Source: Klebsiella phage KMI7
Sequence record: MN101221.1
Length of the DNA: 64,000 nucleotides
Direction: 5' to 3' (one strand)
Shown here: piece by piece, positions 9,483 to 63,078 of the stretch
Layout: each line of letters opens with the position of its first letter
Numbering within the stretch: the first letter of the stretch is position 1
The notes under the pieces: generated by a model
The model's database searches: none
What the model saw: the letters and a program-made list of their open reading frames with translations, nothing else
Told to the model about the DNA's origin: nothing
Translations under genes and position numbers: made by a program

Positions 9483-11051
9483 ATGTCTAAGAAAAACGAA
9501 TTGATGGAAAAATGGAACGATCTTCTGGAGTCTCAGGAAGGCTTACCGGATATCGCTACCAAATCCAAAAAACAACTGATTGCTGCCATTATGGAAGCAC
9601 AGGAAAAAGACGCAGAAGTTGATCCGGTTTACCGCGACGAGAAAATCGTTGAATCCTTCGGTGGTTTCCTGGCGGAAGCTGAAATTGCTGGTGACCACGG
9701 TTACGACGCAACCAAAATCGCTTCTGGTAACTCAAGCGGTGCTATCACCAACATCGGCCCTGCTGTAATCGGTATGGTTCGCCGTGCGATTCCTAACCTG
9801 ATCGCGTTCGATATCTGCGGTGTTCAGCCTATGACTGGCCCTACTGGACAGGTGTTCGCTCTCCGCGCAGTGTACGGTAAAGATCCGCTGGCTTCCGGTG
9901 CTAAAGAAGCATTCCATCCGATGTTCTCTCCGGATAGCATGTACTCCGGTCAGGGCGCGGCTCCGAGCAACGGCTTTACCGAACTGGCTTCCGGTACTGC
10001 GATTGCTGACGGCGCTATCGTGTTCCACGATTTCGTTGAAACTGGTCGTGTGTTCCTCCAGAATGTTTCTGGCTCTCCGGTTACTGTAACTGGTTCTACC
10101 GCCGATGCTCTGGATGCTGCTGTTATCGCCGAACAGGAAAAAGGTACTCTGGCTGAAATTTCTTACGGTATGGCTACCAGTGTAGCAGAACTGCAAGAAC
10201 AGTTCAACGGTTCTACTGGCAACCCGTGGAACGAAATGGGCTTCCGTATCGATAAGCAGGTTATCGAAGCACGTAGCCGCCAACTGAAAGCACAGTACTC
10301 TGTAGAACTGGCTCAGGATCTCCGCGCTGTTCACGGTATGGACGCTGACGCCGAACTGTCTGCTATTCTGGCAACCGAAATCATGCTGGAAATCAACCGC
10401 GAAATCGTTGACATGATCAACTATACCGCACAGGTTGGTAAAACTGGTTTCACTCAGACCGTTGGCTCTAAAGCTGGTGCGTTTGACTTCCAGGATCCGA
10501 TTGATGTTCGTGGCGCTCGTTGGGCTGGTGAAAGCTACAAAGCTCTGCTGATTCAGATCGACAAAGAAGCAAACGAAATCGCACGTCAAACTGGTCGTGG
10601 TGCTGGTAACTTCATCATCGCTTCCCGTAACGTGGTTTCCGCTCTGGCTCGTATCGATAGCGGTATCACTCCGGCAGGTCAAGGTCTCCAGAAGACTCTG
10701 AACGTTGACACCACTAAAGCAGTATTCGCTGGTGTTCTGGGTGGCGTGTATAAAGTATACATCGACCAGTATGCACGTGGTGATTACTTCACCGTGGGTT
10801 ACAAAGGCGATAACGAAATGGATGCTGGTATCTACTACGCTCCGTATGTTGCGCTGACCCCGCTGCGTGGTTCTGATCCGAAGAACTTCCAGCCAGTAAT
10901 GGGCTTCAAAACTCGTTACGGTGTAGGTATCAACCCGTTTGCGAACTCTCGCTCTCAGGCTCCGTCCGACCGTATCACTTCTGGTATGATTACCAAAGAA
11001 ATGTTCGGTAAAAACGCATACTTCCGCAAGGTTTATGTGAAAGGGCTGTAA
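9483..11051 (+). CDS. 23: major capsid protein gp23
   Basis: 522 aa (T4 gp23 is 521 aa); strongly biased codon usage typical of a highly expressed gene; collinear similarity to gp23. Confidence 0.95.
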   Translation: MSKKNELMEKWNDLLESQEGLPDIATKSKKQLIAAIMEAQEKDAEVDPVYRDEKIVESFGGFLAEAEIAGDHGYDATKIASGNSSGAITNIGPAVIGMVRRAIPNLIAFDICGVQPMTGPTGQVFALRAVYGKDPLASGAKEAFHPMFSPDSMYSGQGAAPSNGFTELASGTAIADGAIVFHDFVETGRVFLQNVSGSPVTVTGSTADALDAAVIAEQEKGTLAEISYGMATSVAELQEQFNGSTGNPWNEMGFRIDKQVIEARSRQLKAQYSVELAQDLRAVHGMDADAELSAILATEIMLEINREIVDMINYTAQVGKTGFTQTVGSKAGAFDFQDPIDVRGARWAGESYKALLIQIDKEANEIARQTGRGAGNFIIASRNVVSALARIDSGITPAGQGLQKTLNVDTTKAVFAGVLGGVYKVYIDQYARGDYFTVGYKGDNEMDAGIYYAPYVALTPLRGSDPKNFQPVMGFKTRYGVGINPFANSRSQAPSDRITSGMITKEMFGKNAYFRKVYVKGL

Positions 11052-13424: not shown

Positions 13425-13733
13425 ATAGGTAAAACTATGCCATAGGCATGACAAACCGATTATGCGTAATGAATGAGGCTTGTACGGGGTTCTTTGCCTG
13501 GATCCCATAGTTCCCCATTACGGAGGCAAAACGGGCGATGGAGGCAACAAAATCGCGTCCTAAATACATGTGTACCCGAAAGGGGCTTGATAAAAGAATG
13601 CTGGATGATAGGCGTACTCTTTTGCGCCGTCCGATGGAGTTTACCTTCGGCGGGGTGATTGATAATATACCTTCGATCAAGGGCATGTGAATAGAATAGC
13701 CAGAATAGTACAGCACTGGCGTTAAGCAAATGT

Positions 13734-13770
13734 ACAAAAGCCCCTTCCTTTCGGTTGGGGCTTCTTTTTA
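13734..13770. terminator. bidirectional rho-independent terminator between the uvsY operon and uvsW.1
   Basis: AAAAGCCCC-loop-GGGGCTTCTTTTT; A-run on one side and T-run on the other. Confidence 0.75.
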
Positions 13771-24206: not shown

Positions 24207-24209
24207 ACT

Positions 24210-24728
24210 ATGAACAGTCACGGAAACTATAGAACTATTTCTGATGAAATAGCCGCAATAAGAGAACTCCTTCAACACGTTTCAGTTGATGTTACTTCTG
24301 GAAATATCGTATGGTCTTCTCCGCGTCAAGGTAGGAGGGTTGGTGATTCCGCTGGTACTATGAAAGATGGATATTGTGTTATAAAGTTTCAAAAGAAACA
24401 TTATCGCAGACATCGGATCATCTTTTATGTTGCTAATGGGTATCTTCCCGCTCTTGTTGACCATAAGAATGGTGTTGAATTTGGTGATGGTATAGATAAT
24501 TTGCAAGAGGCAACGCAACAAGAGAACATAAGAAAGCAGATAAAGAAACGAAGTAATGCTTCTGGAAAAAGAGGGGTTATTTTTGATAAAAGAAGAAATA
24601 ACTATCAAGCGCGAATAGTTGTTGATGGTAAGCAGATTTTTCTAGGTTCATATGATAACCCTGAAAAGGCTTATGAAGTTTACAACGAAAAAGCAAAAGA
24701 ATTGTTCGGTAATTTTTATGTCGAATGA
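24210..24728 (+). mobile_element. free-standing HNH homing endonuclease with AP2 DNA-binding domain
   Basis: HNH_3 pattern GYCVIKF...HRIIFYVANGYLPALVDHKNG...DNLQEATQQEN plus AP2 domain SGKRGVIFDKRRNNYQARIVVDGKQIFLGSYDNPEKAYEVYNEKAKELFG. Confidence 0.75.
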
Positions 24729-25305
24729 TTTTAGTACAGTAATTACGACTGCCAAGACAGTAACATTAATTGGCAGTCGCAAACCTCCTGAACGTATCGC
24801 AAACATTGCTGTTAAAATCGGACGTGCTTTGAACGAACGCAGGATCAGGGCTTATTCTGGCGGCGCTCCTGGTATGGATAGTCACTTTCTGTTTGACTAT
24901 AGTCCGGATAACAGGTGTATAATCCTTCCTGAGAACGGGTTTAACGGCCTTTTCTCAAACGGAAAGGATATCATCGACTTTCGAGATTTAAACACACAGA
25001 AAGCCGCTGACGAAGCCAGAAAGGTAGCAGGTAACTTCGATACACAGAATGAATACGTTCAAAGAAGGTATGCGCGAAACACGATTCAAGTTCTTCGTGA
25101 AAATCTTGACAATCCAACTGATTTCGTTTTATTTTGGGCGGAAGAACGTGAAGGATGTGTTAAAGGTGGAACCGCGATCGCTGTAAGATTGGCTAGGTTG
25201 TACAGGGTTCCATGTTTCAATCTCTTCAAAGAAAGTGTATTGAACGATGTGTGTGATACGTTAGGGATCAATATCAAACCCCCAACGTTGGATTTTTTAT
25301 GGTAA
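24718..25305 (+). CDS. SLOG/DprA(Smf)-like Rossmann-fold protein
   Basis: TVTLIGSRKPPERIANIAVKIGRALNERRIRAYSGGAPGMDS matches the GSR...SGxAxGxD core of DprA/SLOG; 11-nt overlap with HNH gene. Confidence 0.5.
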   Translation: MSNDFSTVITTAKTVTLIGSRKPPERIANIAVKIGRALNERRIRAYSGGAPGMDSHFLFDYSPDNRCIILPENGFNGLFSNGKDIIDFRDLNTQKAADEARKVAGNFDTQNEYVQRRYARNTIQVLRENLDNPTDFVLFWAEEREGCVKGGTAIAVRLARLYRVPCFNLFKESVLNDVCDTLGINIKPPTLDFLW

Positions 25306-28075: not shown

Positions 28076-28364
28076 TATCCGCAAAAACGACAAAGGAACC
28101 GTGATTTTCTATGACAACATGCCCCTTGTAGCTCGCAAGGGGCTTTTTGCTAAAATCGCTGGGTATTCCTTTAAACTGGAAGAAGTCAACGACGAAACAC
28201 TAAAAGAGATCGTAAGAATTGCCTTACAGTTAAGAGGTAAGAAAGACGAACAAAGAGCTATTGACATGATCAATAAATTGGGGGAAACTCAATGCTTCAT
28301 AGTGAATCGTGGTTACAAGTACGATACCATTGCAAAATTTGAAAAAGGGCTTTGTGAATTATGA
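28062..28364 (+). CDS. hypothetical protein (100 aa)
   Basis: overlaps nadV end by 14 nt and dam start (ATGA). Confidence 0.4.
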   Translation: MPGFSIRKNDKGTVIFYDNMPLVARKGLFAKIAGYSFKLEEVNDETLKEIVRIALQLRGKKDEQRAIDMINKLGETQCFIVNRGYKYDTIAKFEKGLCEL

Positions 28365-30010: not shown

Positions 30011-32130
30011 AAGTAGAAAAACGCGACGGAACAATCGTCGATTTCGATAAAGAAAAAATTCGTAACGCAGTTTATAAAGCTGGCGGTACGATGACGGATG
30101 AAGACAGTGCGATTATGCTTGTGTTGCGTAGTCAGATCCGCAACGGTAAAGCAATGAAGATTTCACAAATTCAAGAACTTGTTGAAGAATCTTTGATGAA
30201 GACAAATCCGACTGTTGCCCGTGCATATATCGAATATCGTCATGATCGTGATATCTCCCGTGAACAAAACGGAAAATTATTCCGTGATATCAAGGGTTTG
30301 ATGACTCTTAGTAACAAAGAATTAACCAACGAAAACGCAAACAAAGATTCTCGCGTATTCCCGACTAAACGCGATCTTCTGGCTGGTATCGTTTCTAAAC
30401 ATATGGCGCGTAACCATATTCTACCGAAACATATTGTTGCGGCGCATGATTCCGGTGATATTCATTATCACGATCTGGATTACAGCCCGTTCACCCCATA
30501 CACTAACTGCTGTCTTGTTGACCTGAAAGGCATGTTAGAAAACGGGTTCCGGATGGGTAACGCTGATATCGAACCGCCAAAATCAATCGGTGTTGCTACT
30601 GCTCTTATGGCTCAGATCACCGCACAGATTGCTTCTCACCAGTACGGCGGGACAACCTTTGCAAACGTCGATCAGGTGCTGGCCCCTTACGTTGAAATGA
30701 CGTACAACAAACACTTTAAAGATGCTGTTTGGTACGGGGTTCCTAAATCAAAACAGTATGCGATGGAAAAAACAGAAAAGGATGTATTCGATGCGTTCCA
30801 GTCATACGAATATGAAGTAAACACCTTACATACTGCAAATGGACAGACGCCTTTTGTCACAATCACTTTTGGTATGGGTACTGGTTGGCGCGAACGCATG
30901 ATCCAGAAAGCAATTCTGAAAAACCGTATTCGTGGACTGGGTAAAAAGGGCATTACTCCCGTATTCCCAAAACTGGTTATGTTTATGGAAAAAGGGATTA
31001 ACCTTAATCCGGAAGACAGAAACTATGATATTAAGAAATTGGCCCTGGAATGTTCTTCAAAGCGTATGTATCCGGATATTATTAGCGCGGCTAATAACCG
31101 TCGTATTACTGGCTCTAGCATTCCTGTATCTCCTATGGGTTGTCGTAGTTTCCTTAGCGTGTGGAATGATGAGCACGGTAATGAAATTCTTGATGGACGT
31201 AATAACCTGGGCGTTGTGACAATCAACCTTCCTCGTATTGCGATTGAAGCCCAAACACAGGAAGATGAAGACGCGCATGATGCATTTTGGCGTATCCTTG
31301 ATGAACGTCTGGAACTGTGTTTTGAAGCCCTGATGACTCGTATTGATAGTCTCAGAGGTGTTAAAGCCAGTGTAGCCCCGATCCTTTATACAGAAGGTGC
31401 GTTTGGTGTAAGGTTGAAACCCGATGATGAAATATTGGAACTGTTCAAAAATGGGCGTAGTTCTATCAGTCTGGGATACATCGGATTGCATGAAACTCTG
31501 ATGCTTTTCGGATCTGGACAGCACCCATTCGACCGGATCGGTTCTCAGAACATGGGTAGACTGATTCTGGAATATCTACGCGCTGCGACCGAAGCATGGA
31601 AAAAGAAAACCGGATTTGGGTTTAGTCTGTATTCAACCCCTGCTGAATCTCTATGTCATCGTTTCTGCAAACTGGACTATGAGAAATTCGGAAGTATCAA
31701 AGGGATCACAGATAAAGGCTGGTACACTAACAGTTTTCATCTGGACGTTGACCGCAAGGTAACACCGTTCGAGAAAATCGACTATGAAGCCGATTATCAT
31801 TACATTGCAACTGCTGGACATATCAGCTATGTAGAATTCCCTGATATGAAAAACAACCTGGAAGCCCTTGAAAAAGTCTGGGATTATGCAATGGATAAAC
31901 TGGACTACTTCGGAACAAACCTTCCTGTTGATAAATGCTTTGAATGTGGTTCGGATGATGAATTTAAGCCAACAGAAGACGGTTTTCATTGTACCCATTG
32001 TGGGAACCACGATCCGGAAAAAATGAGCGTCACGCGCCGTACATGCGGTTATTTGGGTGCTCCTGCTGTCCGTGGGTTCAACGAAGGTAAGAACAAAGAA
32101 ATGATGCATCGCATTAAGCATCAAAATTAA
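30007..32130 (+). CDS. nrdD: anaerobic ribonucleoside-triphosphate reductase NrdD (class III), intron-less
   Basis: 707 aa; N-terminal ATP-cone, C-terminal zinc site CFECGSDDE...CTHCG and glycyl-radical motif RRTCGYLG; ATGA overlap with gene 49. Confidence 0.9.
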   Translation: MKVEKRDGTIVDFDKEKIRNAVYKAGGTMTDEDSAIMLVLRSQIRNGKAMKISQIQELVEESLMKTNPTVARAYIEYRHDRDISREQNGKLFRDIKGLMTLSNKELTNENANKDSRVFPTKRDLLAGIVSKHMARNHILPKHIVAAHDSGDIHYHDLDYSPFTPYTNCCLVDLKGMLENGFRMGNADIEPPKSIGVATALMAQITAQIASHQYGGTTFANVDQVLAPYVEMTYNKHFKDAVWYGVPKSKQYAMEKTEKDVFDAFQSYEYEVNTLHTANGQTPFVTITFGMGTGWRERMIQKAILKNRIRGLGKKGITPVFPKLVMFMEKGINLNPEDRNYDIKKLALECSSKRMYPDIISAANNRRITGSSIPVSPMGCRSFLSVWNDEHGNEILDGRNNLGVVTINLPRIAIEAQTQEDEDAHDAFWRILDERLELCFEALMTRIDSLRGVKASVAPILYTEGAFGVRLKPDDEILELFKNGRSSISLGYIGLHETLMLFGSGQHPFDRIGSQNMGRLILEYLRAATEAWKKKTGFGFSLYSTPAESLCHRFCKLDYEKFGSIKGITDKGWYTNSFHLDVDRKVTPFEKIDYEADYHYIATAGHISYVEFPDMKNNLEALEKVWDYAMDKLDYFGTNLPVDKCFECGSDDEFKPTEDGFHCTHCGNHDPEKMSVTRRTCGYLGAPAVRGFNEGKNKEMMHRIKHQN

Positions 32131-32132
32131 TC

Positions 32133-32171
32133 AAAAAGCCCTTGACTTCGGTTGAGGGCTTTTGTTATATT
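32133..32171 (+). promoter_or_regulatory. terminator-promoter cassette family A (PeSL-like): hairpin GCCCTTGACTTCGGTTGAGGGC with embedded -35 TTGACT, T-run, extended -10 TGtTATATT
   Basis: near-identical copies at 50033-50054 and 63049-63070 (opposite orientation); 17-nt spacer from TTGACT to TATATT. Confidence 0.7.
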
Positions 32172-32197
32172 GGGCCTATCGAAAAAGGAGACATATT

Positions 32198-32440
32198 ATG
32201 AAACTGACTAAGAAAATGACCGATGTAGTGGCATGTGCGTTTGCATTAGGCTACAAAGTTGAAAATCATCCAACTCGCGTTGAAGTCATCAACCCTATCA
32301 AGGGCCGTCCTGGTTTGGTTCTGTGTGAAGACGGTACAGCATATCGTAATGATGTCTCTTTAGAACTGGCAACTACTATCCGCACCGCAAAACAAATGAA
32401 AGATGTTCTCATTAGCGGCGCAAAATTGAGGGCTTTATGA
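32198..32440 (+). CDS. hypothetical protein (80 aa)
   Basis: track ORF trimmed to ATG with AAAAGGAGACATATT SD located just downstream of the cassette promoter. Confidence 0.5.
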   Translation: MKLTKKMTDVVACAFALGYKVENHPTRVEVINPIKGRPGLVLCEDGTAYRNDVSLELATTIRTAKQMKDVLISGAKLRAL

Positions 32441-32934
32441 TGTATTGGACAAAAGATAAATTTGTTTTTCGTGATGATACGTGCTTTGGGACTGCATACC
32501 GAAACTTAGCTATTCGTGGAGGTTCGTTTTCGGCTAATGATTTGTCTAAGGTAGTATTTCCTATTAAAGTTACTGAGTATGACGTATTCGGTGTTAAAGG
32601 GTTTACTGATTACTTTGGTACAAAGTTTGAATCAGAATCCTACATTTTTACTAATAGCGATCGTGAATTGTTCAAAAAACACGTTGTTGTTAAAGAAAAA
32701 CCGCTATTACCAAAAGAAGATGAAGCAAAGGAAATCTATGATCTCCTGAACATGCTTGATAATCTCGGTACGTGTCATCTGTTCGGTAAACGCGCCCGTA
32801 AAGCGAAAGATGTTCTCAACCTGTTACGCTCTCGCCGTAATTATCTGATCCGGGAAGCGGAACGTAATCTGAAAAATTCAGAAAAACAAGTTGATTTTCA
32901 TAAATCAACCCTTGCGAAATTAAAGGCTTTGTGA
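32437..32934 (+). CDS. hypothetical protein (165 aa)
   Basis: ATGA overlap with previous ORF. Confidence 0.5.
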   Translation: MMYWTKDKFVFRDDTCFGTAYRNLAIRGGSFSANDLSKVVFPIKVTEYDVFGVKGFTDYFGTKFESESYIFTNSDRELFKKHVVVKEKPLLPKEDEAKEIYDLLNMLDNLGTCHLFGKRARKAKDVLNLLRSRRNYLIREAERNLKNSEKQVDFHKSTLAKLKAL

Positions 32935-33140
32935 TGTTTCCGTTATACGCTAAAGTGCGTCGAAATGTCGGGAATTCATATCAAGAATGGAGTGAATGGC
33001 TACGTGAAACAAAGTCATTCTACATTTCAAAAGCAACTGATATGAAAGGCCGTAACATTCGCTATCGTAAACCCAGTGGTAAACGAGTGAATGGGATAGA
33101 TTACATTGTTCTTGATTCGATTCGGGATGATATAAAATGA
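32931..33140 (+). CDS. hypothetical protein (69 aa)
   Basis: ATGA overlap chain. Confidence 0.4.
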   Translation: MMFPLYAKVRRNVGNSYQEWSEWLRETKSFYISKATDMKGRNIRYRKPSGKRVNGIDYIVLDSIRDDIK

Positions 33141-33649
33141 TTAGCAAGATCCTTGATAAGTTATTTCCTTCCCGTGTTGCTGAACGCGAGAAGAGACAAA
33201 ATCGTTTTCAGAACGCTATTGACTATCTCGAAGAAATTCGATTTCAGAAATTCCTTGAAGATAAAAAGATGCGTGAAGACGAGAAGCACCCAAATTCTAA
33301 AATGGCTGACGGTGTAACAAAATGTGCGGTTGGTCGGACGTGGAAACGAAAAGACTACAAGGATCTTGTTTCTGCTATACCACGCGGAAGCCTGGAAGAT
33401 TACTCAAAAGCAACGGGCCGATCTTATACCGGATGCCTTAACAGACTCTGTATGATTGGTGTTGTTAAGAGAATGACTCCTACGTATAATCATGTTTATA
33501 TGGCTATCGTAAAGAAAAGAAGGTTGCAATTCTATGCAGCATCTGGGGAATCTATCAATCTAATTGATGATTTAATTGAAGTTGGGTATGTAGACGACGG
33601 GAAAATTTTAAAAGCTCCTGATTATCTACGTGGTAAACTATTGAAATAG
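33137..33649 (+). CDS. hypothetical protein (170 aa)
   Basis: ATGA overlap chain; basic. Confidence 0.5.
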   Translation: MISKILDKLFPSRVAEREKRQNRFQNAIDYLEEIRFQKFLEDKKMREDEKHPNSKMADGVTKCAVGRTWKRKDYKDLVSAIPRGSLEDYSKATGRSYTGCLNRLCMIGVVKRMTPTYNHVYMAIVKKRRLQFYAASGESINLIDDLIEVGYVDDGKILKAPDYLRGKLLK

Positions 33650-33658
33650 GTATAAATT

Positions 33659-33910
33659 ATGATTTTCAACAAAGCAAATTCACGTAATTTGAACTATCTA
33701 CGCTGTGAACTGGAAGCTAACGAAATTGAACTGTTTTTCTGTGGGGCTACAGATCCGGAACACAAATTGCATTGGGTATCAGGTGAGATTATAAGCCTAA
33801 CCGATCAGATTGTCGAAGAGGCTACCCGCCGCGATGCAATCGTTAAAATTGGTGCTGTTGATGTGAACTATGAAGGACATCCTTCATTTTTCATTCAATA
33901 CTATCCATAA
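33659..33910 (+). CDS. hypothetical protein (83 aa)
   Basis: GTATAAATTATG immediately upstream (late-promoter-like, too close to act). Confidence 0.45.
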   Translation: MIFNKANSRNLNYLRCELEANEIELFFCGATDPEHKLHWVSGEIISLTDQIVEEATRRDAIVKIGAVDVNYEGHPSFFIQYYP

Positions 33911-33915
33911 AAGTA

Positions 33916-33944
33916 TTGACATGTATATCTGAATGTAGTAACAT
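33916..33944 (+). promoter_or_regulatory. sigma70-type early promoter TTGACA-17-TAACAT
   Basis: consensus -35, 17-nt spacer; 27 nt upstream of ORF 33971. Confidence 0.55.
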
Positions 33945-33970
33945 CCTTCTTGTCAACTAAGGAGGATGTT

Positions 33971-34165
33971 ATGAAAATCAAAAACACTGCTACTGAAACT
34001 CTTTGCAACGAAATTGCAGAAATGTACTGGAGTAAAGGTCACTTAGAGGCTATGAAAGAGTTTCAAAAGTGGTGTGATACCCAAAAGTTAGCTAAATGGG
34101 AATACATCGTTATTGTTGAACGGATCAAAGAACTGATCCTCGTGAAGAAAGGTAACATGAAATGA
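33971..34165 (+). CDS. hypothetical protein (64 aa)
   Basis: track ORF trimmed to ATG with AAGGAGGATGTT SD. Confidence 0.45.
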   Translation: MKIKNTATETLCNEIAEMYWSKGHLEAMKEFQKWCDTQKLAKWEYIVIVERIKELILVKKGNMK

Positions 34166-34689
34166 TTCAACTGAAATTAGACACAAATGCGGTGTTAAGC
34201 CTGTTTCCAGAAGGTTCAACCGCTCGCGTAGATCTCCAATCTGCTATCATCAAAAACGTGGTGAATAGCGTGGTTGGTAAGCGTGTTAGCGAAGAAATCA
34301 ACAAACGGATCCAGGAACAGTTAGCTGTTCTAATGCCGAACTCATCCGAAATTACACAGATCATCAAATCTGAATTCTCGGATTACGTCGAAAAACGTTA
34401 TGGGTATTCTAATGTTTTCGATGTCAATTATGGCAATATTCGCGAACTGTCTGGTAAAATCAAAGAATCGGTAAAACAGCAATGCCAAACCATTCTTAAA
34501 GATATCGAGAAAGAGGCGATTGCTCATGCAACAGAAAACATTATTGCAGACGAAGCCGCGTTTATCGCTCGCGTCTCGAATAACCTGGAAGTTACTGTAC
34601 GCAAAGCAGTAACGCAACGGGTTAACACTCAGTTCCCAGACATTATTGACGAAGCGATCAGAGAACGTCTGTTTGGTGAAAAAGCATGA
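34162..34689 (+). CDS. hypothetical protein (175 aa)
   Basis: ATGA overlap with previous; helical, no family recognised. Confidence 0.5.
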   Translation: MIQLKLDTNAVLSLFPEGSTARVDLQSAIIKNVVNSVVGKRVSEEINKRIQEQLAVLMPNSSEITQIIKSEFSDYVEKRYGYSNVFDVNYGNIRELSGKIKESVKQQCQTILKDIEKEAIAHATENIIADEAAFIARVSNNLEVTVRKAVTQRVNTQFPDIIDEAIRERLFGEKA

Positions 34690-35177
34690 ATTACGACCGC
34701 ATCTATAATATGGATGTGGTCAACGGAAAAGGGATCCGTGTTGTTTTGTTTGTGACTGGATGCAATCATAAATGCGAAGGTTGTTATAACAAATCGACGT
34801 GGAACCCTTGCAACGGAACACCGTACACGGAAGAGACAGAAAACCATCTGATTTCTCTGTTGAGTAATCCGCATGTTGATGGACTTACATTAACTGGCGG
34901 CGATCCGCTTTACCGTGACAACTATCCTACTATCCTAAAACTGCTTGAGCGCGTTTCTAAGGAACTTCCAAAGAAAAACGTATGGTTATGGACAGGATAT
35001 ACCCTGGAGGCTTTACAGGCCGACCCAGAACGTTCTAAGCTACTTCCTTACATTGATGTTCTGATTGATGGTAAGTATGAAAAAGATTTGCCAACGAAAA
35101 AGCCGTTTCGCGGTTCAGATAATCAACGTATGATCGAATTCGCTAAAAATTCGATAGAAATTAAAAATATTGCTTGA
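34686..35177 (+). CDS. nrdG: anaerobic RNR activating protein NrdG (radical SAM)
   Basis: 163 aa; MNYDRIY...RVVLFVTGCNHKCEGCYN (CxxxCxxC); LTLTGGDPLY; collinear with T4 NrdG. Confidence 0.9.
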   Translation: MNYDRIYNMDVVNGKGIRVVLFVTGCNHKCEGCYNKSTWNPCNGTPYTEETENHLISLLSNPHVDGLTLTGGDPLYRDNYPTILKLLERVSKELPKKNVWLWTGYTLEALQADPERSKLLPYIDVLIDGKYEKDLPTKKPFRGSDNQRMIEFAKNSIEIKNIA

Positions 35178-37453: not shown

Positions 37454-37467
37454 TAAATAATCAGTTA

Positions 37468-37490
37468 AATGGCCTTCGGGCCATTTTTTG
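37468..37490 (+). terminator. rho-independent terminator ATGGCCTTCGGGCCATTTTTT
   Basis: 7-bp stem with TTCG loop and T-run, immediately followed by late promoter. Confidence 0.8.
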
Positions 37491-37492
37491 TA

Positions 37493-37500
37493 TATAAATA
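37493..37500 (+). promoter_or_regulatory. late promoter TATAAATA upstream of gene 34
   Basis: TATATAAATA 33 nt upstream of gp34 ATG. Confidence 0.6.
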
Positions 37501-37532: not shown

Positions 37533-40500
37533 ATGGTAGCTAAATCATTCCGCGCACGAAGTGGCCTTGATGCCGCTGGTGAAAAAGTTATCAACGTTGG
37601 GAAGGCTGATCGTAATACGCTGAGTGACGGCGTTAACGTTGACTTTTTCAATGAATTTAACGGAATCCAGCAGTATGACCCGACCCGTGGTTATTCTCAA
37701 GACATGGCGATCATTTATGCGCGTCGTATCTGGTACGCAAAACAGAATATTGCTTCCCCTGCTGGGGCTTTCGACGAATCCAAATGGATCGCAACTCGTA
37801 ATGACCCGAAATGGGTTTATAGTAACGTAACCACTCCAGACGGTAGCATTATTGAATCTGGTAGTTACATTATGGCTGATGGGCGCTTTACTGAACTTCT
37901 GTACCTGCTGCCGGACAACCCGACAGAGGGCGACGTAATCACGTTTAAAGATTGCGGTGGTTTAGTAGGTGTGAACAGTATCCTTGTTAAGTCTAACACC
38001 CGTCAAATCCGTTTACGTGCGGTACAATCGGCACAGTATAGACTGACCCACCCGTACATGATCGCAACGTTTATCTATAACGGTAACGTATGGCGTGTTG
38101 CTGAAACTCTGGACAACCGTGATTCTGAGATCGTGAACGCAACCGGAACAGGTTCATTCCAGTTACAATCTGGTATGACAGTTTTCCGTAACAGTGCTAC
38201 AGGTAAAATCACTCTCCAGTTGCCGAAATATGCAAATGATGGTGATGTGATCACAACCTATGACGCTGATAAAATGAACTCTATCAACGTAGCCGTGTTG
38301 CAGATTTATCCAGGTAGTGGACACACTATTTCTGATGGTGCAAGTACTGGTGTTACTTCGGTAACTAGCCAGAAATCCGGCTTTGGTATGTTCATTTTTG
38401 ATGCACAGAATAGCCAATGGAAAGTATATGATGCTGATAACCGTGTTCGTCTGCGTCGTATCTATAGTGATTTAAACGCAGTTCCTAACGATTACGTTTT
38501 TGTTACTGCAAACCCTTCTGGGACTATACCAAACGTTACAGTTACCCTTCCAACTGATGTTGCTGATGGTGATCGCGTTTACGTATCCCTTTACATGATG
38601 GGTAAAAACCAGAACTGTACAATCAAAGTTAAAGATGGTACAACGGACAAGATCCGCACCAACAAAAATATGATGAAGTTCCCGCAGCGCAAAGATTATC
38701 CGCCTGATGATTGGTTTAGTGTAACTTCATTAGCCTTTAATGCTGGTAGTGATTACCTCCCGTATATCGAGTTTTCTTATCTGAAAGCTACGAAAGAATG
38801 GGTTGTTGCTAATTATCGTCCAATCGTTGAACGTGTTGATGCAACGAACAGATCGCGTACTGGTGTTATTGCTCTTGCTGCACAGGCAGAAGTAAACAAA
38901 AACTTGGAAGATAACCCGAACGACGAAACCGCTATTACTCCGATGACGTTAGCAAATAAAACTGCTACTGAAACCCGTCGTGGTATTGCGCGTTTAGCAA
39001 CAACTGCCGAGGTTAACAAACTTTCAACCGATACCTATCTGGATGATGTGATTGTTACCCCTAAGAAGCTGAACGAAAGAACAGCAACTGAAACCCGTCG
39101 TGGGCTGGCAGAAATCGCAACTCAGGCAGAAACCAACGGAAGCACCGATGATATTACTATTGTAACCCCTAAAAAGTTGCATAACCGTATTGCATCGCCG
39201 ACCTTGACTGGTATCCTTGCCCTTGTTGCTACTGGTGGTGCTCCTAACACCAACACGGATCGTGCTCAGGCTGGTACTGGGGTTTATGATCATTCAGATT
39301 ATCAGAAAGCGGTAACGCCTAAAACTCTTCGTGAGTATAAAGCGACTCAGTTACAATCCGGTGCTGTATGGCTGGCTTCTGAAACCGAAGTTATTAACGG
39401 TACTGTTGCAAGTTCAAACATTCCGACCGTTGTTACTCCGGAAATGCTGCACAAGAAAACCTCTACTGATGGTCGTATTGGTTTGATCGAGATTGCTACC
39501 CAGGCAGAAACAAACGCAGGGACTGATTACACGCGAGCGGTAACGCCTAAAACGCTTAACGATCGTGCTGCAACGGAAACGCTGACAGGTATCATTGCAA
39601 TTGCAACCACTGCCGAAGTATCAGCAGGTACTGTAACGAATAAAGCGATCGTACCGTCTAAACTGAAAGGTTATCTGGACGATACAAGTCATATTACTGT
39701 TGCTACTGCTGACGGGTTAACTCAATCTGGTACTATCTGGACTACGGTTAACATCGGTATTCAATCAGCAACCGAAACTCAACGTGGTACTTTACGCGTT
39801 GCTACGCAGTCTGAGACGAACGCAGGGACATTAGATACAGTATTTGTCACCCCTAAGAAGTTACACGCTAAGAAAGCGACTGAGAGCGCAGAAGGTATCA
39901 TTCAGGTGGCTACGGCTGCTGAAACTACTGCTGGCACCGTTGCAAACAAGGCTGTTTCTCCTAAGAACTTGAAAAATACAATTCAGGTTGATACTTCATG
40001 GCAAGCTACCGATCTGGTACGTGGTACTGTGAAGCTGTCTAAGGGGCTTGGTACTTGGTCTGGTAATGATGTGGCTGGTTCTACTCTTCCGGATGATGGT
40101 TACGCCGCTGTAGGTGTTGCTGTTTCTCCGTATGAACTGAACTTAACACTGAAACACTATCTGCCGATCGGGGCTAAAGCGGTTGATGCTGACAAGCTGG
40201 ATAACCTGGATTCTTCCCAGTTCATTCGTCGTGATGTTGATCAGACGGTTAACGGGGCATTGACTCTAACGAAAGCAACCACTGTACAGGCTGACATTAA
40301 CTCAACCGCTGACGCAAGTTTCCGGGTAATGAATGTTAGTGGAGATCTGAACGTTGGTAACGGCTCTACGATGGGTAAACTTCGTTTGAATGGTGGATCA
40401 TCTAACGACTGGTCAATTCAAGCAAGTTCAGCCTCTGGGCGTATTGCAATGATCTCAACGGGTAACACTGGCACAGTTCATCTTTCTGTGTATAATGATA

Positions 40501-48897: not shown

Positions 48898-49184
48898 TGA
48901 TACCCCCAAAAATTTCTATGCATGAATGGTCGAATTCCGATAGTTTCACTCAAAATGAATATCGGATGATCTAGCTCATCGTGGTTTTCTTCGTCAATGA
49001 CGATATCCCAATCAGTAGCCTTTTGTTCTTCTACCGTGGCAATGAATACCTGGTTTACTTCACACTTGCGGTGTGTACGTCTGATGATTGTATCCCCTTC
49101 ACGAAACACAATCATATCAGGGTTGGTAGTGCGGTACGCGGTTTTACCCGCGCACACTTCATTAAGCATATCTTCGTATGTCAT
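48894..49184 (-). CDS. DUF2829-like small protein, copy 2 (tandem paralog)
   Basis: MTYEDMLNEVCAGKTAYRTTNPDMIVFREGDTII; ATGA overlap with copy 1 and TAATG overlap with upstream gene. Confidence 0.4.
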   Translation of the reverse strand: MTYEDMLNEVCAGKTAYRTTNPDMIVFREGDTIIRRTHRKCEVNQVFIATVEEQKATDWDIVIDEENHDELDHPIFILSETIGIRPFMHRNFWGYQ

Positions 49185-49981
49185 TATAAAACCTTTACAC
49201 GTTGAACGATGGTTTGTTTAACGTCTTTGTATTCTCCGTGCTCTTTAACGGTTGCTTTGAAAGTGATTTCATCACCTTCGTTTGCAATGTTATTACCGAA
49301 GTAAACAACAACATTACCATCAACATTAATTTTGGTCATGAATCTTTCCACAGAAGTGTAGTAAGAAACTTGAGTATATCCCAGTGAAATCACTTTCTCA
49401 ACGGTTCCGGTCATTTCCAGACGTTGTTTGATTTCACCGATGTGGTTAGCTTTAGAAATGCGTTCCTGGCGCTCTTGTTCCCACTGTTCGCGGATTTCTT
49501 CGCGTTTGGCGATATAATCCTTCTCCAGTGCAACACCCATGCAGTAAGCGCACACGGCGTCAAATACAGGGCTGTTTTTGTTGTCTTCTTTAGACTGGTC
49601 AGCCCACCAAAGAACAGTAAACATTGGCATTTCTGCAATTACTTCGCCTTTACGCTTGCCAATCGGCATGATCCCTTTTTCCAGCAGTTCCAGTTTTTCA
49701 GTATCGAACACTGACAGTTTACCGCGACGTTCGAACAGATCGAAATCTGCAAAGCCCTGGAATACCATTTTGAAAGTATCAGTTTCAGTTAAACGGGCTG
49801 AAACACGGTCGAAATACTCACGCGCTTTCGCTTCCGCTTTCTCCGGATCGGTAGATAAGTTGCAGATATAGTTATCAGAAGTATAACCGCCACCTCTACG
49901 CTCAACACGCAAGGTATACATTGCATTTTTACGACCAGAAGAAATGAAGTAAGTGGTAGTAACTACGGTTGCGTTAGTCAT
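49184..49981 (-). CDS. hypothetical protein (265 aa)
   Basis: track ORF trimmed to ATG with AAGGAGAAATACC SD lying downstream of the cassette promoter. Confidence 0.5.
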   Translation of the reverse strand: MTNATVVTTTYFISSGRKNAMYTLRVERRGGGYTSDNYICNLSTDPEKAEAKAREYFDRVSARLTETDTFKMVFQGFADFDLFERRGKLSVFDTEKLELLEKGIMPIGKRKGEVIAEMPMFTVLWWADQSKEDNKNSPVFDAVCAYCMGVALEKDYIAKREEIREQWEQERQERISKANHIGEIKQRLEMTGTVEKVISLGYTQVSYYTSVERFMTKINVDGNVVVYFGNNIANEGDEITFKATVKEHGEYKDVKQTIVQRVKVL

Positions 49982-50014
49982 GGTATTTCTCCTTAAAGGG
50001 TATCTCGTTTCGAT

Positions 50015-50060
50015 ATGGCTAATATAGCAAAAGCCCTTGACTTCGGTCAAGGGCTTTTTT
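50015..50060 (-). promoter_or_regulatory. terminator-promoter cassette family A (PeSL-like), leftward
   Basis: palindromic hairpin GCCCTTGACTTCGGTCAAGGGC 50033-50054 with embedded TTGAC; - sense CTTTTGCTATATT extended -10; followed by ATCGAAAC. Confidence 0.7.
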
Positions 50061-50074
50061 CATTTATTGCGAAA

Positions 50075-50407
50075 TTATAAGAAGAACCCAGTGCGAACAA
50101 TCAGATCGATTTTCTTTTCTGGTTCAAACGGTGATTTGCTATCGATGTTACACTGATAGAACATACCAACATACTTTTCAGGAATGTTGGATTCACGCGC
50201 CCATTTCAGGTTATCATCGGTATTCGGCCCCAGCATGAGGTTAACAACATCAACAGCATAATCCTGTTCTTTGGTGTTACCGGAACCGTTTACATAATGC
50301 CCGTGGGCGGTTTTGAGGATCTCAATTACTTCGCTATCGTCAGTTTCGACTTTGTAAAGCGTTGTATTTTCAGGAATTTCTTCAAGAATGATCAAAGCGG
50401 TTTTCAT
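50075..50407 (-). CDS. hypothetical protein (110 aa)
   Basis: track ORF trimmed to ATG with AAAGGTAAGTGTG SD (MKTALIILEEIPE...). Confidence 0.45.
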   Translation of the reverse strand: MKTALIILEEIPENTTLYKVETDDSEVIEILKTAHGHYVNGSGNTKEQDYAVDVVNLMLGPNTDDNLKWARESNIPEKYVGMFYQCNIDSKSPFEPEKKIDLIVRTGFFL

Positions 50408-50539: not shown

Positions 50540-50560
50540 TTAGGGGCTTTCGCCCCTGTA
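50540..50560 (-). terminator. terminator hairpin AGGGGC-TTTC-GCCCCT (leftward)
   Basis: 6-bp GC stem, followed on the - strand by AAATATTTTTC. Confidence 0.6.
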
Positions 50561-52577: not shown

Positions 52578-54838
52578 TATTTCCACCGTATTAATTTCTT
52601 AAACTCACTGAGATTCTTTTCGTTGTTGTAAATCGGACGAATTGAATAAGAATCGCTATGTTCAACAAGTGAAGCCAGTAACGGGTTTAGTGATTTAAAG
52701 ATTTCCCATGCCTGATCAACACGTTTTTTCATATTGCTGCGTTTAACACGCATTGATGCTATAGATTCACGCAGAATCGGACAACGCGCCCTGGAAAGAT
52801 TTCTACCATCTTTCTCATACCCTTCCAGACACACTATACGTTCGAGGGTATCAACAATCTTATACAGTTTTTCATTATATCGGTTTTTCACAATCCGATC
52901 AAGCGATACACCAAAACGGCTATGCAATGCGTCTGTTTCTGTTGAGTGTTCCTTACCAATCCATCCAGGCAAGCAATTATCTTTCAATGCCTTTTCGGAT
53001 TTAACATACTGCTTGCACAGCATATCATCAAAGCATACCAGATTTGAATCCGGGATCCACTTCCAGAGGCTGTTACGGATAGCAAACACAACAGGGATCC
53101 CAGTATGGCGCATGATACGCGATAAAGTAGATTCTTTCATTGCTGAATCCATAGACAACCTGGAATTTTCACCATCTAAGCGGCTATATTCATCAATACC
53201 ATACAACCGAACACCTGGGGCTTTATCCAGTGATAAAAACTCTGATTTTGTCATAAACAGAGAAGTTTTTGCCAGATTGCCGTTACTATCCAACTCATAA
53301 CGATATACGGTCGGGGTTTTTGGGCGCGGTTCTGAATTTTTCGGTGCATATAGCGCTTTTGATTTTTCGCGATCTGCATCATAGATCTCTTTTTCTTTTG
53401 TCATTTCACTGGTACGGAGATACACGATTTCCGATTCATCAAAATGACCTTTCCGAACGATATCATTAACAATCTCACGCTTTGAATCACTATCGTAATA
53501 TGCAACAAAGCTAACACGGCTTAGGTTATGCATTTTAGCATACCCGACGATATACGGTTTAACCGTGTTGGTATCCACTTTTAACAGAATGAGTTTCTTC
53601 TGTTTCCACGGATAATAAATGCGTGTGATGTCCTGGCGTTTGGTTGTTTCTGGCTTATACTTGCTCCAGCGGCCTCCGCTACCCGTTACCTGATACCATG
53701 CATCTTTACCGTCGTATTCGTTCGCCCAATACCCAGCAATATAATCATCATTATATTTGTTTGGTTTGACTAGCTCGCTATGGATCCAGCCAATAGAATC
53801 GCCGTTGATGCGAAAATTAGCATCTTTACCAACAAAGTTTTGTACCATTGAAGGCAGAGAATGGAACCACGTCAGTTTATCACGAACGGTTTGTAACTTA
53901 TCGAATTCTGATTTAACTCGATTGAAATACACCCGGCTGATTTGTTTCAGACGTTCTTTAACAATTCCTACTGTCATTTTATCCATACTCAACTCTTCGC
54001 GAGAAGGCATGAAATCAAGTTCACCGATCGGGAAGTCAATAATATACGTATACTGGCTTTCTGTATAGCAATAGAACATCGAGGTATCATACAAATCTTT
54101 ATCCAGAGGATAAATGATGTTACCCATGCGAGCATATACACCGCTAGTGTATGCTGATTTATGACGGATCACCCCGCTATCGTTGGTTGCTTCTTTCGGC
54201 TGATAGTTGATTTTGAGAATAGAAGCACCAACAAAGTTAGGACGAATATCAGTAAATGATTCGTATACCCTTGCTGCTTCGTTTTCCCATTCTTTGATAT
54301 CTTCAACTTTAACCGGAACAGTGATAGTAACCCCGTTAGGTTCATCACTTTCAATCTCATACAGAGGATCGCAGAACGGTTCCCCATCATCCATATAGAT
54401 TGTGTAACCGCATTTGATACCGTCTTTTACAGATTCAACTGTGAACGCATCGGCATAGCAAAGCGGAGATTTGCAACCCAGACCCATAGAACCGATCAGG
54501 TCGTTTGAATCATTTTTAGTTGATTCGAAGTAAACGGTAAACGCATCACTAACGAAATCAGGAGACATACCGATCCCGTAGTCACGAATAACAAAACGAG
54601 GATCAACAGCAGTTGGCAACTGGACATCAAACGGGTTCTGATTTCCCGCTTCTTTGTGTCCATCGATCGCATTACAAGACAGTTCGCGAATGATTGCGCG
54701 GATCTTGTATTTGTATACTGTCGAAGAAAGGATCTTATACGCTTTCTTGTTTGCGCGTAGAGATAGTTTGTTTCGTCCCTTGCTGGTATCTGTACCAACA
54801 CGGTAGATGGTTTGCGGTGTATCTTCGCGTAATTTCAT
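52577..54838 (-). CDS. rIIA: RIIA protein (GHKL/Bergerat-fold ATPase domain)
   Basis: 753 aa; KILSS.VY..KIRA..REL..N.IDGH (N-box), DYGIGMS (G1), GSMGLGCKSP (G2); collinear with T4 rIIA. Confidence 0.85.
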   Translation of the reverse strand: MKLREDTPQTIYRVGTDTSKGRNKLSLRANKKAYKILSSTVYKYKIRAIIRELSCNAIDGHKEAGNQNPFDVQLPTAVDPRFVIRDYGIGMSPDFVSDAFTVYFESTKNDSNDLIGSMGLGCKSPLCYADAFTVESVKDGIKCGYTIYMDDGEPFCDPLYEIESDEPNGVTITVPVKVEDIKEWENEAARVYESFTDIRPNFVGASILKINYQPKEATNDSGVIRHKSAYTSGVYARMGNIIYPLDKDLYDTSMFYCYTESQYTYIIDFPIGELDFMPSREELSMDKMTVGIVKERLKQISRVYFNRVKSEFDKLQTVRDKLTWFHSLPSMVQNFVGKDANFRINGDSIGWIHSELVKPNKYNDDYIAGYWANEYDGKDAWYQVTGSGGRWSKYKPETTKRQDITRIYYPWKQKKLILLKVDTNTVKPYIVGYAKMHNLSRVSFVAYYDSDSKREIVNDIVRKGHFDESEIVYLRTSEMTKEKEIYDADREKSKALYAPKNSEPRPKTPTVYRYELDSNGNLAKTSLFMTKSEFLSLDKAPGVRLYGIDEYSRLDGENSRLSMDSAMKESTLSRIMRHTGIPVVFAIRNSLWKWIPDSNLVCFDDMLCKQYVKSEKALKDNCLPGWIGKEHSTETDALHSRFGVSLDRIVKNRYNEKLYKIVDTLERIVCLEGYEKDGRNLSRARCPILRESIASMRVKRSNMKKRVDQAWEIFKSLNPLLASLVEHSDSYSIRPIYNNEKNLSEFKKLIRWK

Positions 54839-54848
54839 TGTTTATTTC

Positions 54849-55085: not shown

Positions 55086-55088
55086 ACC

Positions 55089-55643: not shown

Positions 55644-55671
55644 TTTAGAATCTCCTTTGCTTGGTACAAAA

Positions 55672-55712
55672 CCAATATAGCAAAAAGCCCCCTGCATTGC
55701 AAGAGGCTTTGT
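55672..55712 (-). promoter_or_regulatory. terminator-promoter cassette family B (degenerate)
   Basis: AAGCCTCTTGCAATGCAGGGGGCTTTTTGCTATATT on the - strand: TTGCAA-17-TATATT with TG at -15/-14; imperfect stem. Confidence 0.5.
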
Positions 55713-55714
55713 TA

Positions 55715-58905: not shown

Positions 58906-58966
58906 CTCTTTGTTTAATCACTGACATTATATAGGGTTCTATGAAAAAGAAAACCCCTTTCGGGGT

Positions 58967-59173: not shown

Positions 59174-59178
59174 GATAA

Positions 59179-61626: not shown

Positions 61627-61685
61627 GGTATATCTCCTAAAGTGTGTTTCGTTTCGATGTAAGTACTATATCAAAGATGGTTATT

Positions 61686-61910: not shown

Positions 61911-61983
61911 AATAATTTCCTCCCTTGTTTCGATGGGGTAACTATACCAAAGCTACCCCAGAATGTTTTAACAAAAAGTGCTA

Positions 61984-62247
61984 TTAGTAGGTATCCAGTT
62001 TATACATTTTGCACCAGTTCATGAATTCTTCGAAAGTCTGAGTATTAACACGTTTTTCCTTCTTCACTTTCTTAGTGATTACAGGACGGTTAGTAAAACG
62101 TTTTTGCATTTTCACAGTGATTGCTACTTTATCGCCCAGGTCTTCAACCTTTTCAACCAGCGCCCACTGAGAACCAATTTCAGCGCCGAAAGTCAAACCA
62201 ACAATCTCACCTGCTTTAACGTGTGCTGCATATTTTACTTTAACCAT
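61984..62247 (-). CDS. hypothetical protein (87 aa)
   Basis: track ORF trimmed to ATG with AAAGGAATACGAAA SD; preceded by cassette B promoter and ATCGAAACGAAAC leader. Confidence 0.5.
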   Translation of the reverse strand: MVKVKYAAHVKAGEIVGLTFGAEIGSQWALVEKVEDLGDKVAITVKMQKRFTNRPVITKKVKKEKRVNTQTFEEFMNWCKMYKLDTY

Positions 62248-62284
62248 TTTCGTATTCCTTTCTCTGTTTCGTTTCGATGAATAC

Positions 62285-62325
62285 AAGATACCAAAAAGCC
62301 TCCCGCAATGCAAGAGGCTTCTTTA
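62285..62325 (-). promoter_or_regulatory. terminator-promoter cassette family B: hairpin AGCCTC-TTGCATTGCGG-GAGGCT with TTGCAT in loop, T-run, extended -10 TGgTATCTT
   Basis: 6-bp stem at 62297-62319; TTGCAT-17-TATCTT on the - strand. Confidence 0.6.
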
Positions 62326-62863: not shown

Positions 62864-63046
62864 TCACCCCTTAATTGTGTCAAGTACAGTAAACCAGTCA
62901 TGAAGCCATATCGTTGTTCTTACAGCGATATACGTTAACAAACTAATCAATGATACCGCTCCGCAAATAGCCAGCGTAATCAACAGCCGGATTTCAAATT
63001 TAGTAAAATTCATATCAATCTCCTTTCTGAGAACCCAATATAACAA
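62864..63046 (-). CDS. small membrane protein (60 aa)
   Basis: TM helix LLITLAICGAVSLISLLTYIAV; SD AAAGGAGATTGAT downstream of cassette -10. Confidence 0.4.
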   Translation of the reverse strand: MLYWVLRKEIDMNFTKFEIRLLITLAICGAVSLISLLTYIAVRTTIWLHDWFTVLDTIKG

Positions 63047-63078
63047 AAGCCCTCAACCGAAGTCAAGGGCTTTGTTTT
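63030..63078 (-). promoter_or_regulatory. terminator-promoter cassette family A (PeSL-like), leftward
   Basis: hairpin GCCCTCAACCGAAGTCAAGGGC 63049-63070 (reverse complement of the 32138 copy); - sense CTTTTGTTATATT extended -10. Confidence 0.7.

Follow-up and report, generated by a model that had tools for sequence, protein, structure and literature searches.

Promoter-early stem-loops (PeSLs) have been described in T4-type phages as intergenic elements that combine a sigma-70-like early promoter with a stem-loop terminator in five relative layouts, one of which places the stem-loop over the -35 box (Arbiol et al. 2010, PMC2839356). Their definition also includes an A+T-rich upstream region, a ribosome-binding site (RBS) and ATG downstream, and clustering in hyperplastic regions marked by ORFans and by insertions or deletions (indels) (PMC2839356; PMC4122927). 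Analysis of a 64,000-nt stretch of the Klebsiella phage KMI7 genome (MN101221.1; here called the window) revealed three copies of a hairpin-containing cassette, designated family A. Over long stretches the window is ~98% identical to KP15/KP27-like Klebsiella phages (genus Slopekvirus, family Straboviridae, T4-type). Each cassette very probably combines an intrinsic terminator, or an attenuator, with a host sigma-70-dependent early promoter and follows the PeSL design. This result is largely expected, as promoters and terminators at these sites are already marked in public records; the reading of their overlap as a PeSL is added here.

The window was searched with the degenerate 34-nt pattern GCCCTTGACNNNNGTYRAGGGCTTTTGYTATATT, which covers hairpin, T-run, and -10 box. 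Exactly three matches were obtained, at 32138-32171 (+), 50021-50054 (-), and 63037-63070 (-), and none in 100 dinucleotide-preserving shuffles of the window (chance expectation, 0), which confirms the three repeats at the places proposed by a first-pass annotation of this DNA. Copies 1 and 3 have an identical 34-nt core and are 92% identical over 52 nt. In each copy, an A-run beginning 2 to 15 nt past the stop codon of the upstream gene is followed by a 9-bp G+C-rich stem with the -35 box inside its 5' arm GCCCTTGAC, then by a tetraloop, the 3' arm, TTTT, and G(T/C)TATATT, which forms an extended -10 (TGn). RBS and ATG lie 25 to 45 nt further downstream. In addition to the extended -10, the hexamers of all three copies (TTGACT or TTGACC, and TATATT) match the consensus at 10 of 12 positions. 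Instead of the (T/C)(T/C)AAGGGC first given, copies 1 and 3 have the 3' arm GTTGAGGGC, which pairs with two G.U wobbles, and copy 2 has GTCAAGGGC; the spacer between -35 and -10, initially put at 17 to 18 nt, is 18 bp in every copy. The loop reads TTCG in copies 1 and 3, and copy 2 has its reverse complement, CGAA, on the sense strand. Coordinates of all elements are listed in Table 1.

The three copies do not form a family of their own; they belong, as one sequence sub-type, to a Slopekvirus family with 13 members. An nhmmer profile built from 12 KP27 elements identified 13 full-length members of ~60 nt each in KP27 (E-values 7e-19 to 8e-11) and five in the window (2e-16 to 3e-11), so that the initial total of three was an undercount. 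All remaining matches were partial, with E-values of at least 1e-4, leaving a clean gap below the full-length members. The consensus of the extracted KP27 sites is aaaaaGCCCTTG(A/C)n-loop-nnnrGGGCTTT(T)GTTATATT-N7-ATCGAAAC(G)AAAC...AGGAG...ATG. The two further window members, B and B', have the family design with the stem GCCTCTTGC, other than that of family A, and most members outside family A have a 17-bp spacer. All members are intergenic and gene-oriented and are followed by RBS and ATG; at all five window members the succession of stop codon, A-rich run, cassette, AGGAG, and ATG can be read. In KP27 they lie at 3.1, 9.8, 10.5, 25.0, 55.5, 65.2, 75.3, 82.0, 91.6, 93.3, 97.7, 154.0, and 171.4 kb, none of the 13 within the late structural block at 98-153 kb (chance of ~0.007 by our own arithmetic). 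Every one of the 13 downstream KP27 genes is annotated as "hypothetical protein", and several upstream genes encode conserved enzymes (topoisomerase gp52, RegA, DNA ligase, Vs.1, and NrdD). A scan of the window for terminator-like hairpins, in which stems were trimmed to the last G-C pair since the A-run pairs with the T-run, gave 19 hairpin readings with both strands counted; only the hairpins of this family precede a promoter-like arrangement. Two promoter-only relatives were also found, and the one at 61921-61990 has the 5' flank ATAGCAyTTTTTGTTAAA in common with B'.

A further candidate resembling the family lies at 28121-28152 (+), where GCCCCTTGT-AGCTC-GCAAGGGGC is followed by TTTTTGC and TAAAAT. 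It stands at or inside the start of ORF (open reading frame) 28062/28119-28364, directly after the nicotinamide phosphoribosyltransferase gene, and is also conserved in EkoM5VN (position 11856). It may be that the start of this ORF was called wrongly, or that coding sequence includes the hairpin.

The family shares with the PeSLs of RB49 and phi1 (PMC2839356) the repeated intergenic combination of promoter and stem-loop, the upstream stop codon, the A+T-rich upstream region, the downstream RBS and ATG, the early or hyperplastic location mostly upstream of ORFs of unknown function, and the layout in which the stem-loop overlaps the -35 box. It differs from them in copy number (~13 full-length members per genome versus ~50), in its nearly uniform layout with the -35 box in the 5' arm and the T-run as spacer (versus five layouts), and in its stem consensus (GCCCTTG...GGGC versus runs of G then C). 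In RB49 and phi1, both activities of the element as well as mini-circles were demonstrated experimentally (PMC2839356), whereas for the present elements the activities are predicted from sequence; differential ORFs are also less closely associated with them in our sample. The PeSLs/PmSLs of T4/PST and KVP40/nt-1 (Comeau et al. 2014, PMC4122927) share the composite idea and a lineage-specific stem and hexamer consensus, with hexamers TTTACW/TAYWAT (T4/PST) and TTGYVH/TAWWAT (nt-1) versus TTGAC/TATATT plus TGn here. The PST stem-loops lie just upstream of the promoter, whereas those of the present family extend across the -35 box and spacer. "Half" (degraded) PeSLs and one-sided PeSL indels were reported in the same study, and the promoter-only elements at 61645-61676 and 61921-61990 fit the description of a half PeSL. 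For RB43, the available part of Nolan et al. (2006, PMC1524935) describes early promoters 5' of novel ORFs with a T4-like consensus and a preference for G at -33, giving a TTGAC-like -35 box; overlap with terminator hairpins, described here, is not described in that part. In the KP15/KP27 study (Maciejewska et al. 2016, PMC5219037), promoters (MEME/MAST) and terminators (ARNold) were predicted separately at the same loci, and their overlap, family relationship, and link to PeSLs were left undiscussed. The literature searched contained neither a PeSL analysis nor a transcript map of a Slopekvirus.

Folding of the hairpins as RNA gave energies of -17 to -22 kcal/mol, with z-scores from -4.2 to about -7. 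Covariation was determined in 19 distinct hairpin variants from Slopekvirus and Pseudotevenvirus loci (9 stem pairs, 171 cells). Changes on both sides were present at five of the nine stem pairs, the covariation score was 0.665 versus 0.267 in shuffles (reached by none of 500), and sliding the partner by 1 to 3 columns reduced pairing to 35-60%. That all 171 cells are paired follows from the selection of fully paired hairpins, whereas the diversity of pair types does not; G.U accounts for 22 of the paired cells. Sense RNA is more stable than antisense RNA by 4.6 to 7.6 kcal/mol in four of the five window members (-18.3/-12.7, -16.9/-12.3, -17.1/-9.8, and -18.5/-10.9 kcal/mol). Copy 2 is symmetric (-20.5 sense versus -20.9 antisense kcal/mol) and could terminate in both directions because it folds equally well on either strand. 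The G.U pairs and the greater sense stability indicate that the constraint acts on the sense-strand RNA.

These data bear on the possibility that the elements are MotA-type middle promoters and that the palindrome is a DNA site for an activator or repressor instead of an RNA hairpin. A palindrome over the -35 box is the classic operator layout, and the KP27 record labels the homologue of copy 3 (10501-10530) and eight other full-length members "putative middle promoter". However, the palindrome is imperfect as DNA and perfectly paired as sense RNA via G.U, and the stem covaries, whereas a protein operator would conserve its sequence and not tolerate G.T pairs; a DNA operator palindrome was rejected on account of the G.U pairs and the covariation. 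The Mot box (a/t)(a/t)(a/t)TGCTTtA at -30 is present in no family member, the GCTT that does occur lying 4 to 5 nt from the -10 box, and none of the eight ORFs scanned in the interval from the holin gene to rIIB has a Pfam match to MotA or AsiA. Among studied relatives the closest is RB43, which has neither a motA orthologue nor a middle-promoter consensus (Nolan et al. 2006, PMC1524935). T4 MotA-type middle promoters were rejected on these three points, and the "middle" label that most members carry in the KP27 record is unsupported. We consider it very improbable that the cassettes are middle promoters with an operator.

ARNold predicts terminators in KP27 at the homologous sites. In the KP27 RefSeq record (NC_020080), ARNold terminators overlap consensus/MEME promoters on the same strand at 12 sites, including all three homologues of the family-A copies. 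The KP27 annotators had thus independently overlapped terminator and promoter at three of three sites, and, together with the sequence-testable features of architecture, copy number, and location, this upholds the identification of the cassettes as PeSLs in the first-pass annotation. Of the dual terminator-promoter element that it proposed, the composite architecture, with a -35 box in the hairpin 5' arm followed by an extended -10, is supported in silico.

The elements might instead be intrinsic terminators only, the -35/-10 likeness being a by-product of a TTGAC-containing stem with an A+T-rich tail at which no transcript starts. Matches to the sigma-70 consensus are no commoner in the window than in shuffled sequence (36 versus 40.3 expected; 37 versus 45.2), so that a hexamer match alone is weak proof. 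The three copies are also related by descent, and their shared "promoter" is not three independent observations; transcript data are absent from the literature searched. On the other hand, the scanned window hairpins outside the family have neither a 5'-arm TTG nor a following TGnTATAxT, both of which are present in all five full-length members and, in weaker versions, in the candidate at 28121-28143. TTG, 17-18 bp, and TGnTA(T/A)xxT are kept at the orthologous sites of RB43, EkoM5VN, and KPN-12i despite different hairpin sequences, and the pattern TTG, 17-18 bp, TAnnnT persists even where the hairpin sequence is wholly different. At orthologous sites the family-A 5' arm with TTGAC is invariant except for a C-to-T change at arm position 3 in KpCCP1, outside TTGAC, while the 3' arm varies by pair-preserving changes only (GTTGAGGGC, GTCAGGGGC, GTCGGGGGC, and GTCAAGGGC). 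The start-region motif TAnnnT-N7-TCGAAA was found five times versus 1.23 expected, and none of 100 shuffles reached five; all five occurrences are intergenic and gene-oriented, and two of them are promoters without a hairpin. The RBS and ATG that follow at 25 to 45 nt likewise argue for transcripts starting at the elements, and terminators devoid of promoter function appear improbable.

The leader (C)ATCGAAAC(G)AAAC was observed 7 nt past the -10 box of five intergenic promoters (32178-32184, 50008-50014, 61652-61658, 61928-61934, and 62272-62278). It may mark the start site, belong to the initial transcribed sequence, or act as a signal in the 5' untranslated region.

Several points weigh against a composite terminator-promoter. 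In addition to the missing enrichment of sigma-70 matches, the 18-bp spacer is sub-optimal, and the measures of pairing and TTG retention are inflated because only completely paired hairpins with TTG entered the covariation set. A U-run as short and broken as that seen here (family A, UUUUG; most other members, UUUG) may give partial termination or attenuation. The literature searched contained no Slopekvirus RNA 5' or 3' ends, reporter assays, or transcriptomes, and promoter and terminator activity are predicted.

According to the proposed composite function, polymerase coming from the early gene on the upstream side (nrdD, ORF 50075-50407, or the LysM gene) would transcribe the G+C-rich hairpin and the short U-run and would be released, or attenuated, at about -14 to -8 of the embedded promoter, where the U-run falls within the spacer/-10. 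As DNA, the same 40 bp would act as a promoter, with TTGAC in the 5' arm as -35 box, TGnTATATT as extended -10, and the 3' arm and T-run as the 17-18-bp spacer. The new transcript would begin ~7 nt downstream of the -10 box, at the conserved A of ATCGAAA, would therefore not contain the hairpin, and would bear the RBS and the next small ORF. As one transcript would be ended and the next begun, the cassette would insulate adjacent early units and give the downstream ORF its own strong start.

Comparison with Pseudotevenvirus (RB43, EkoM5VN, and KPN-12i) revealed three different hairpins at the three positions orthologous to family A: GCCCCTTGC-GAAA-GTGAGGGGC at position 1 (RB43 and EkoM5VN), the A type at position 2, and GCCCTTGCA-TTCG-TGCAGGGGC with TATTTT at position 3. 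Slopekvirus has the A type at all three positions, and its positions 1 and 3 share one identical sequence with position 2 of RB16 and of metagenomic contigs. The flanking coding DNA of the two genera is 67-81% identical. In the simplest reading, such position-independent cores suggest short-patch conversion between dispersed modules via shared flanks; convergence on an identical core, including loop and wobble positions, seems unlikely. In a secondary and less certain part of the reading, the members may act as short dispersed homologies because shared flanks of ~9 nt and ~16 nt bracket the variable hairpin core. Modules would then exchange sequence, and single ORFs or cassettes would be gained, lost, or swapped at module edges. 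A wider scheme of concerted evolution, in which conversion via the AAAAAGCCC and GGGCTTTTGTTATATT arms moves cores over tens of kb, loop-flip-type events accompany single-ORF gain or loss, and polymerase is handed directly to the next promoter (local recycling), is tentative and rather doubtful.

The opposing possibility, for which we see a real chance but one below even, is that the modules are ordinary positionally conserved signals without a role in recombination and that indels adjoin them since viable gain or loss must fall in spacers. Slopekvirus and Pseudotevenvirus have their cassettes at three orthologous positions, which marks the copies as long established rather than recently mobile. 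A MITE or transposon-like element was rejected because of these orthologous positions in two genera and because terminal inverted repeats beyond the hairpin and target duplications are absent. Positional conservation by itself has difficulty in accounting for the identity of Slopekvirus positions 1 and 3 with Pseudotevenvirus position 2, unlike Pseudotevenvirus positions 1 and 3, which is hard to obtain without inter-site transfer. Single ORFs beside copies 1 and 2 are moreover patchy across genera, and one cassette was exchanged exactly between two paralogous modules.

Indels in the 48-64 kb region were compared among five Slopekviruses and two Pseudotevenviruses. Across the window, indels adjoin copy 1 (between genera only), copy 2, B, and B'; copy 3 has no adjoining indel in the seven other phages aligned across the site (five Slopekvirus, two Pseudotevenvirus). 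The proposal that the cassettes are all boundaries of accessory inserts therefore holds for copies 1 and 2, where gain or loss of a single ORF adjoins the cassette, and fails for copy 3. In sum, the first-pass annotation was largely right on architecture and family, overstated the insert boundaries, and understated the copy number. EkoM5VN is homologous through nrdD and the copy-1 module and then skips exactly the 80-aa ORF (window 32185-32436 absent); this ORF is present in Slopekvirus and RB43, and its indel adjoins the 3' edge of the module. Upstream of copy 2, the segment with KP27_292 is present in six relatives and absent in the window, RB43, and RB16, and a mosaic allele begins at the same junction. 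None of 113 phage records matches the ORF absence beside copy 2 contiguously; RB43 and RB16 nonetheless have the same gene order, and a private deletion of KP27_292 in the window was accordingly softened as an explanation. As their presence varies across genera, the ORFs flanking copies 1 and 2 are single-gene units at cassette edges with a patchy distribution.

The ~45 nt between the copy-2 hairpin (50033-50054) and 50074-50076 are unusually diverged, with flanks 98-99% identical to relatives, and a 141-nt stretch in this region is contiguously matched by no phage record. The loop flip of copy 2, its perfect stem, the missing ORF, and the diverged patch suggest one hairpin-associated event or an imported patch.

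The swap at 61989-62254 falls exactly between B' as upstream border and the paralogous promoter-only module as downstream border, which share ATAGCAyTTTTTGTTAAA and TTTGGTAT...CATCGAAAC; by analogy, it is classed as a PeSL-style exchange. A 1214-bp deletion in PSKm4DII (window 54463-55676; PSKm4DII 8165-8175) ends in the -10 box of B; having lost two small ORFs and the 5' part of rIIA, this phage is a natural rII deletion mutant. Escherichia phage phT4A has 100 bp in place of the 4953-bp nrdD-to-nrdG block (window 30022-34974) and thus lacks copy 1 as well. An indel of 270 bp was located at a small hairpin (50542-50557).

Other findings weigh against a recombination role. Within the genus, a breakpoint adjoins three of the five window modules versus 14 of 58 gene junctions overall, an enrichment that is suggestive and not significant (hypergeometric p of ~0.09, our own arithmetic). 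The PSKm4DII deletion occurred via a 9-bp microhomology, CTTTGCTAT, with rIIA and not via a second module. None of the family-A junctions examined has a module at both ends or shows recombination between two modules. Indels at 18.5-38.5 kb, the region around copy 1, are mostly located at tight gene junctions away from modules. The ORF at 24207-24768 is an HNH homing endonuclease (Pfam HNH_3), in KP27 the place of the one at 34156-34700 is taken by a gene annotated as a MobC-type homing endonuclease, and the one at 33143-33655 has no known function. In KP27, with "similar to" entries as a proxy, four of the 13 downstream neighbours were not KP15-like versus a rough, unverified genome-wide estimate of ~16%; this is no significant enrichment and was not used as evidence. 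On balance, sequence comparison appears to support a role of the modules in recombination in part.

A 211-bp insert at 58970-59180 (-) carries a 68-aa ORF (phrog_26912) between the stop of the FmdB-like gene and a terminator hairpin (58951-58968). It is absent from the six Slopekvirus/leb-type relatives compared; RB43 has an orthologous ORF in the same place, 70% identical and contiguous.

Table 1. Cassette family members in the window, KP27 homologues, and regions of gene gain or loss; promoters and start sites are predicted.
Feature	Coordinates	Strand	Details
Copy 1 (A1)	32131..32191	+	between nrdD stop (32128-32130) and ORF 32198-32440
Copy 1 hairpin	32138-32159	+	arms 32138-32146 / 32151-32159, loop TTCG; A-run 32133-32137; T-run 32160-32163
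Copy 1 promoter		+	-35 TTGACT 32142-32147; extended -10 TGT+TATATT, hexamer 32166-32171
Copy 1 start region		+	predicted start A 32178, then TCGAAA 32179-32184; RBS AAGGAG; ATG 32198
Copy 2 (A2)	50001..50060	-	between stop of ORF 50075-50407 and ORF 49184-49981; A-run 50055-50060
Copy 2 hairpin	50033-50054	-	perfectly paired; sense-strand loop CGAA
Copy 2 promoter		-	-35 TTGACC 50045-50050; -10 TATATT 50021-50026 after TGC; TCGAAA 50008-50013; ATG 49979-49981
Copy 3 (A3)	63017..63076	-	between LysM gene 63077-63358 and 49-aa ORF 62864-63013
Copy 3 elements		-	hairpin 63049-63070; -35 TTGACT 63061-63066; -10 TATATT 63037-63042 after TGT
Member B	55654..55714	-	downstream of topoisomerase gp52 (55715-57001); hairpin GCCTCTTGC-AAT-GCAGGGGGC 55687-55707
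Member B promoter		-	-35 TTGCAA 55697-55702; 17-bp spacer; TGC+TATATT, hexamer 55674-55679
Member B'	62263..62323	-	hairpin GCCTCTTGC-ATT-GCGGGAGGC 62298-62318; leader CATCGAAAC 62271-62279
Member B' promoter		-	TTGCAT; 17-bp spacer; TGG+TATCTT, hexamer 62285-62290
Promoter-only "half" module	61921..61990	-	TTTGG+TATAGT, hexamer 61941-61946, then CATCGAAAC
Second promoter-only relative	61645..61676	-	TGA+TATAGT, hexamer 61665-61670, then CATCGAAAC
KP27 homologue of copy 1			terminator 153967-153988; promoter 153971-154000
KP27 homologue of copy 2			promoter 171420-171449; terminator 171432-171453
KP27 homologue of copy 3			promoter 10501-10530; terminator 10514-10533
First ORF behind copy 1	32198..32440	+	80 aa, phrog_12911, function unknown
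Junction upstream of copy 2	50074..50076	-	213-217-bp segment (75-aa ORF KP27_292) missing in window, ~13 nt upstream of copy-2 A-run
Exchanged cassette	61989..62254	-	one ORF, 87 aa, phrog_10521 (ORF 61984-62247); KP27 has 526 bp with three ORFs instead
Tight-junction single-ORF indels/replacements among Slopekviruses	24207-24768, 33143-33655, 34156-34700		no cassette nearby

The results extend the PeSL concept to the Slopekvirus/Pseudotevenvirus (KP15/RB43) branch, to which many Klebsiella phages under consideration for therapy belong. For annotation, the elements can be recorded as composite early terminator-promoter cassettes in place of "middle promoters" or separate features. For engineering, a cassette of this kind would represent a compact 45-60-bp part comprising insulator, strong early promoter, and leader, and its surroundings would offer natural "safe" junctions for adding or removing genes in these phages. 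The exchange mechanism was proposed in the original PeSL papers mainly from indel maps (PMC2839356; PMC4122927); the position-independent core identity described here provides a testable case of exchange between dispersed regulatory cassettes.

The window begins with late structural genes (gp15-gp24), followed by an early block on the plus strand at ~20.6-37.5 kb, including nrdD and nrdG, then by the tail-fibre genes gp34-38 and the holin gene, and finally by an early block on the minus strand at 48.6-64 kb, which includes rIIB, rIIA, topoisomerase, and dexA. A search of the whole window against Rfam gave no family match. Just upstream of gp34, at 37467-37500 (+), the hairpin AAATGGCCTTCGGGCCATTT and its T-run pass directly into TATAAATA, the T4 late-promoter consensus; this arrangement resembles a late counterpart of the early cassettes, with a terminator joined to a late promoter. 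Within gp34, which encodes the proximal tail fibre, diverged internal direct repeats occur at 38935-39883 (+), with units 108, 270, and 306 nt apart. A hairpin at 13729-13768, between convergent genes and downstream of the uvsW.1 homologue, matches a bidirectional terminator for which conservation among T4-like genomes was reported (Nolan et al. 2006, PMC1524935).

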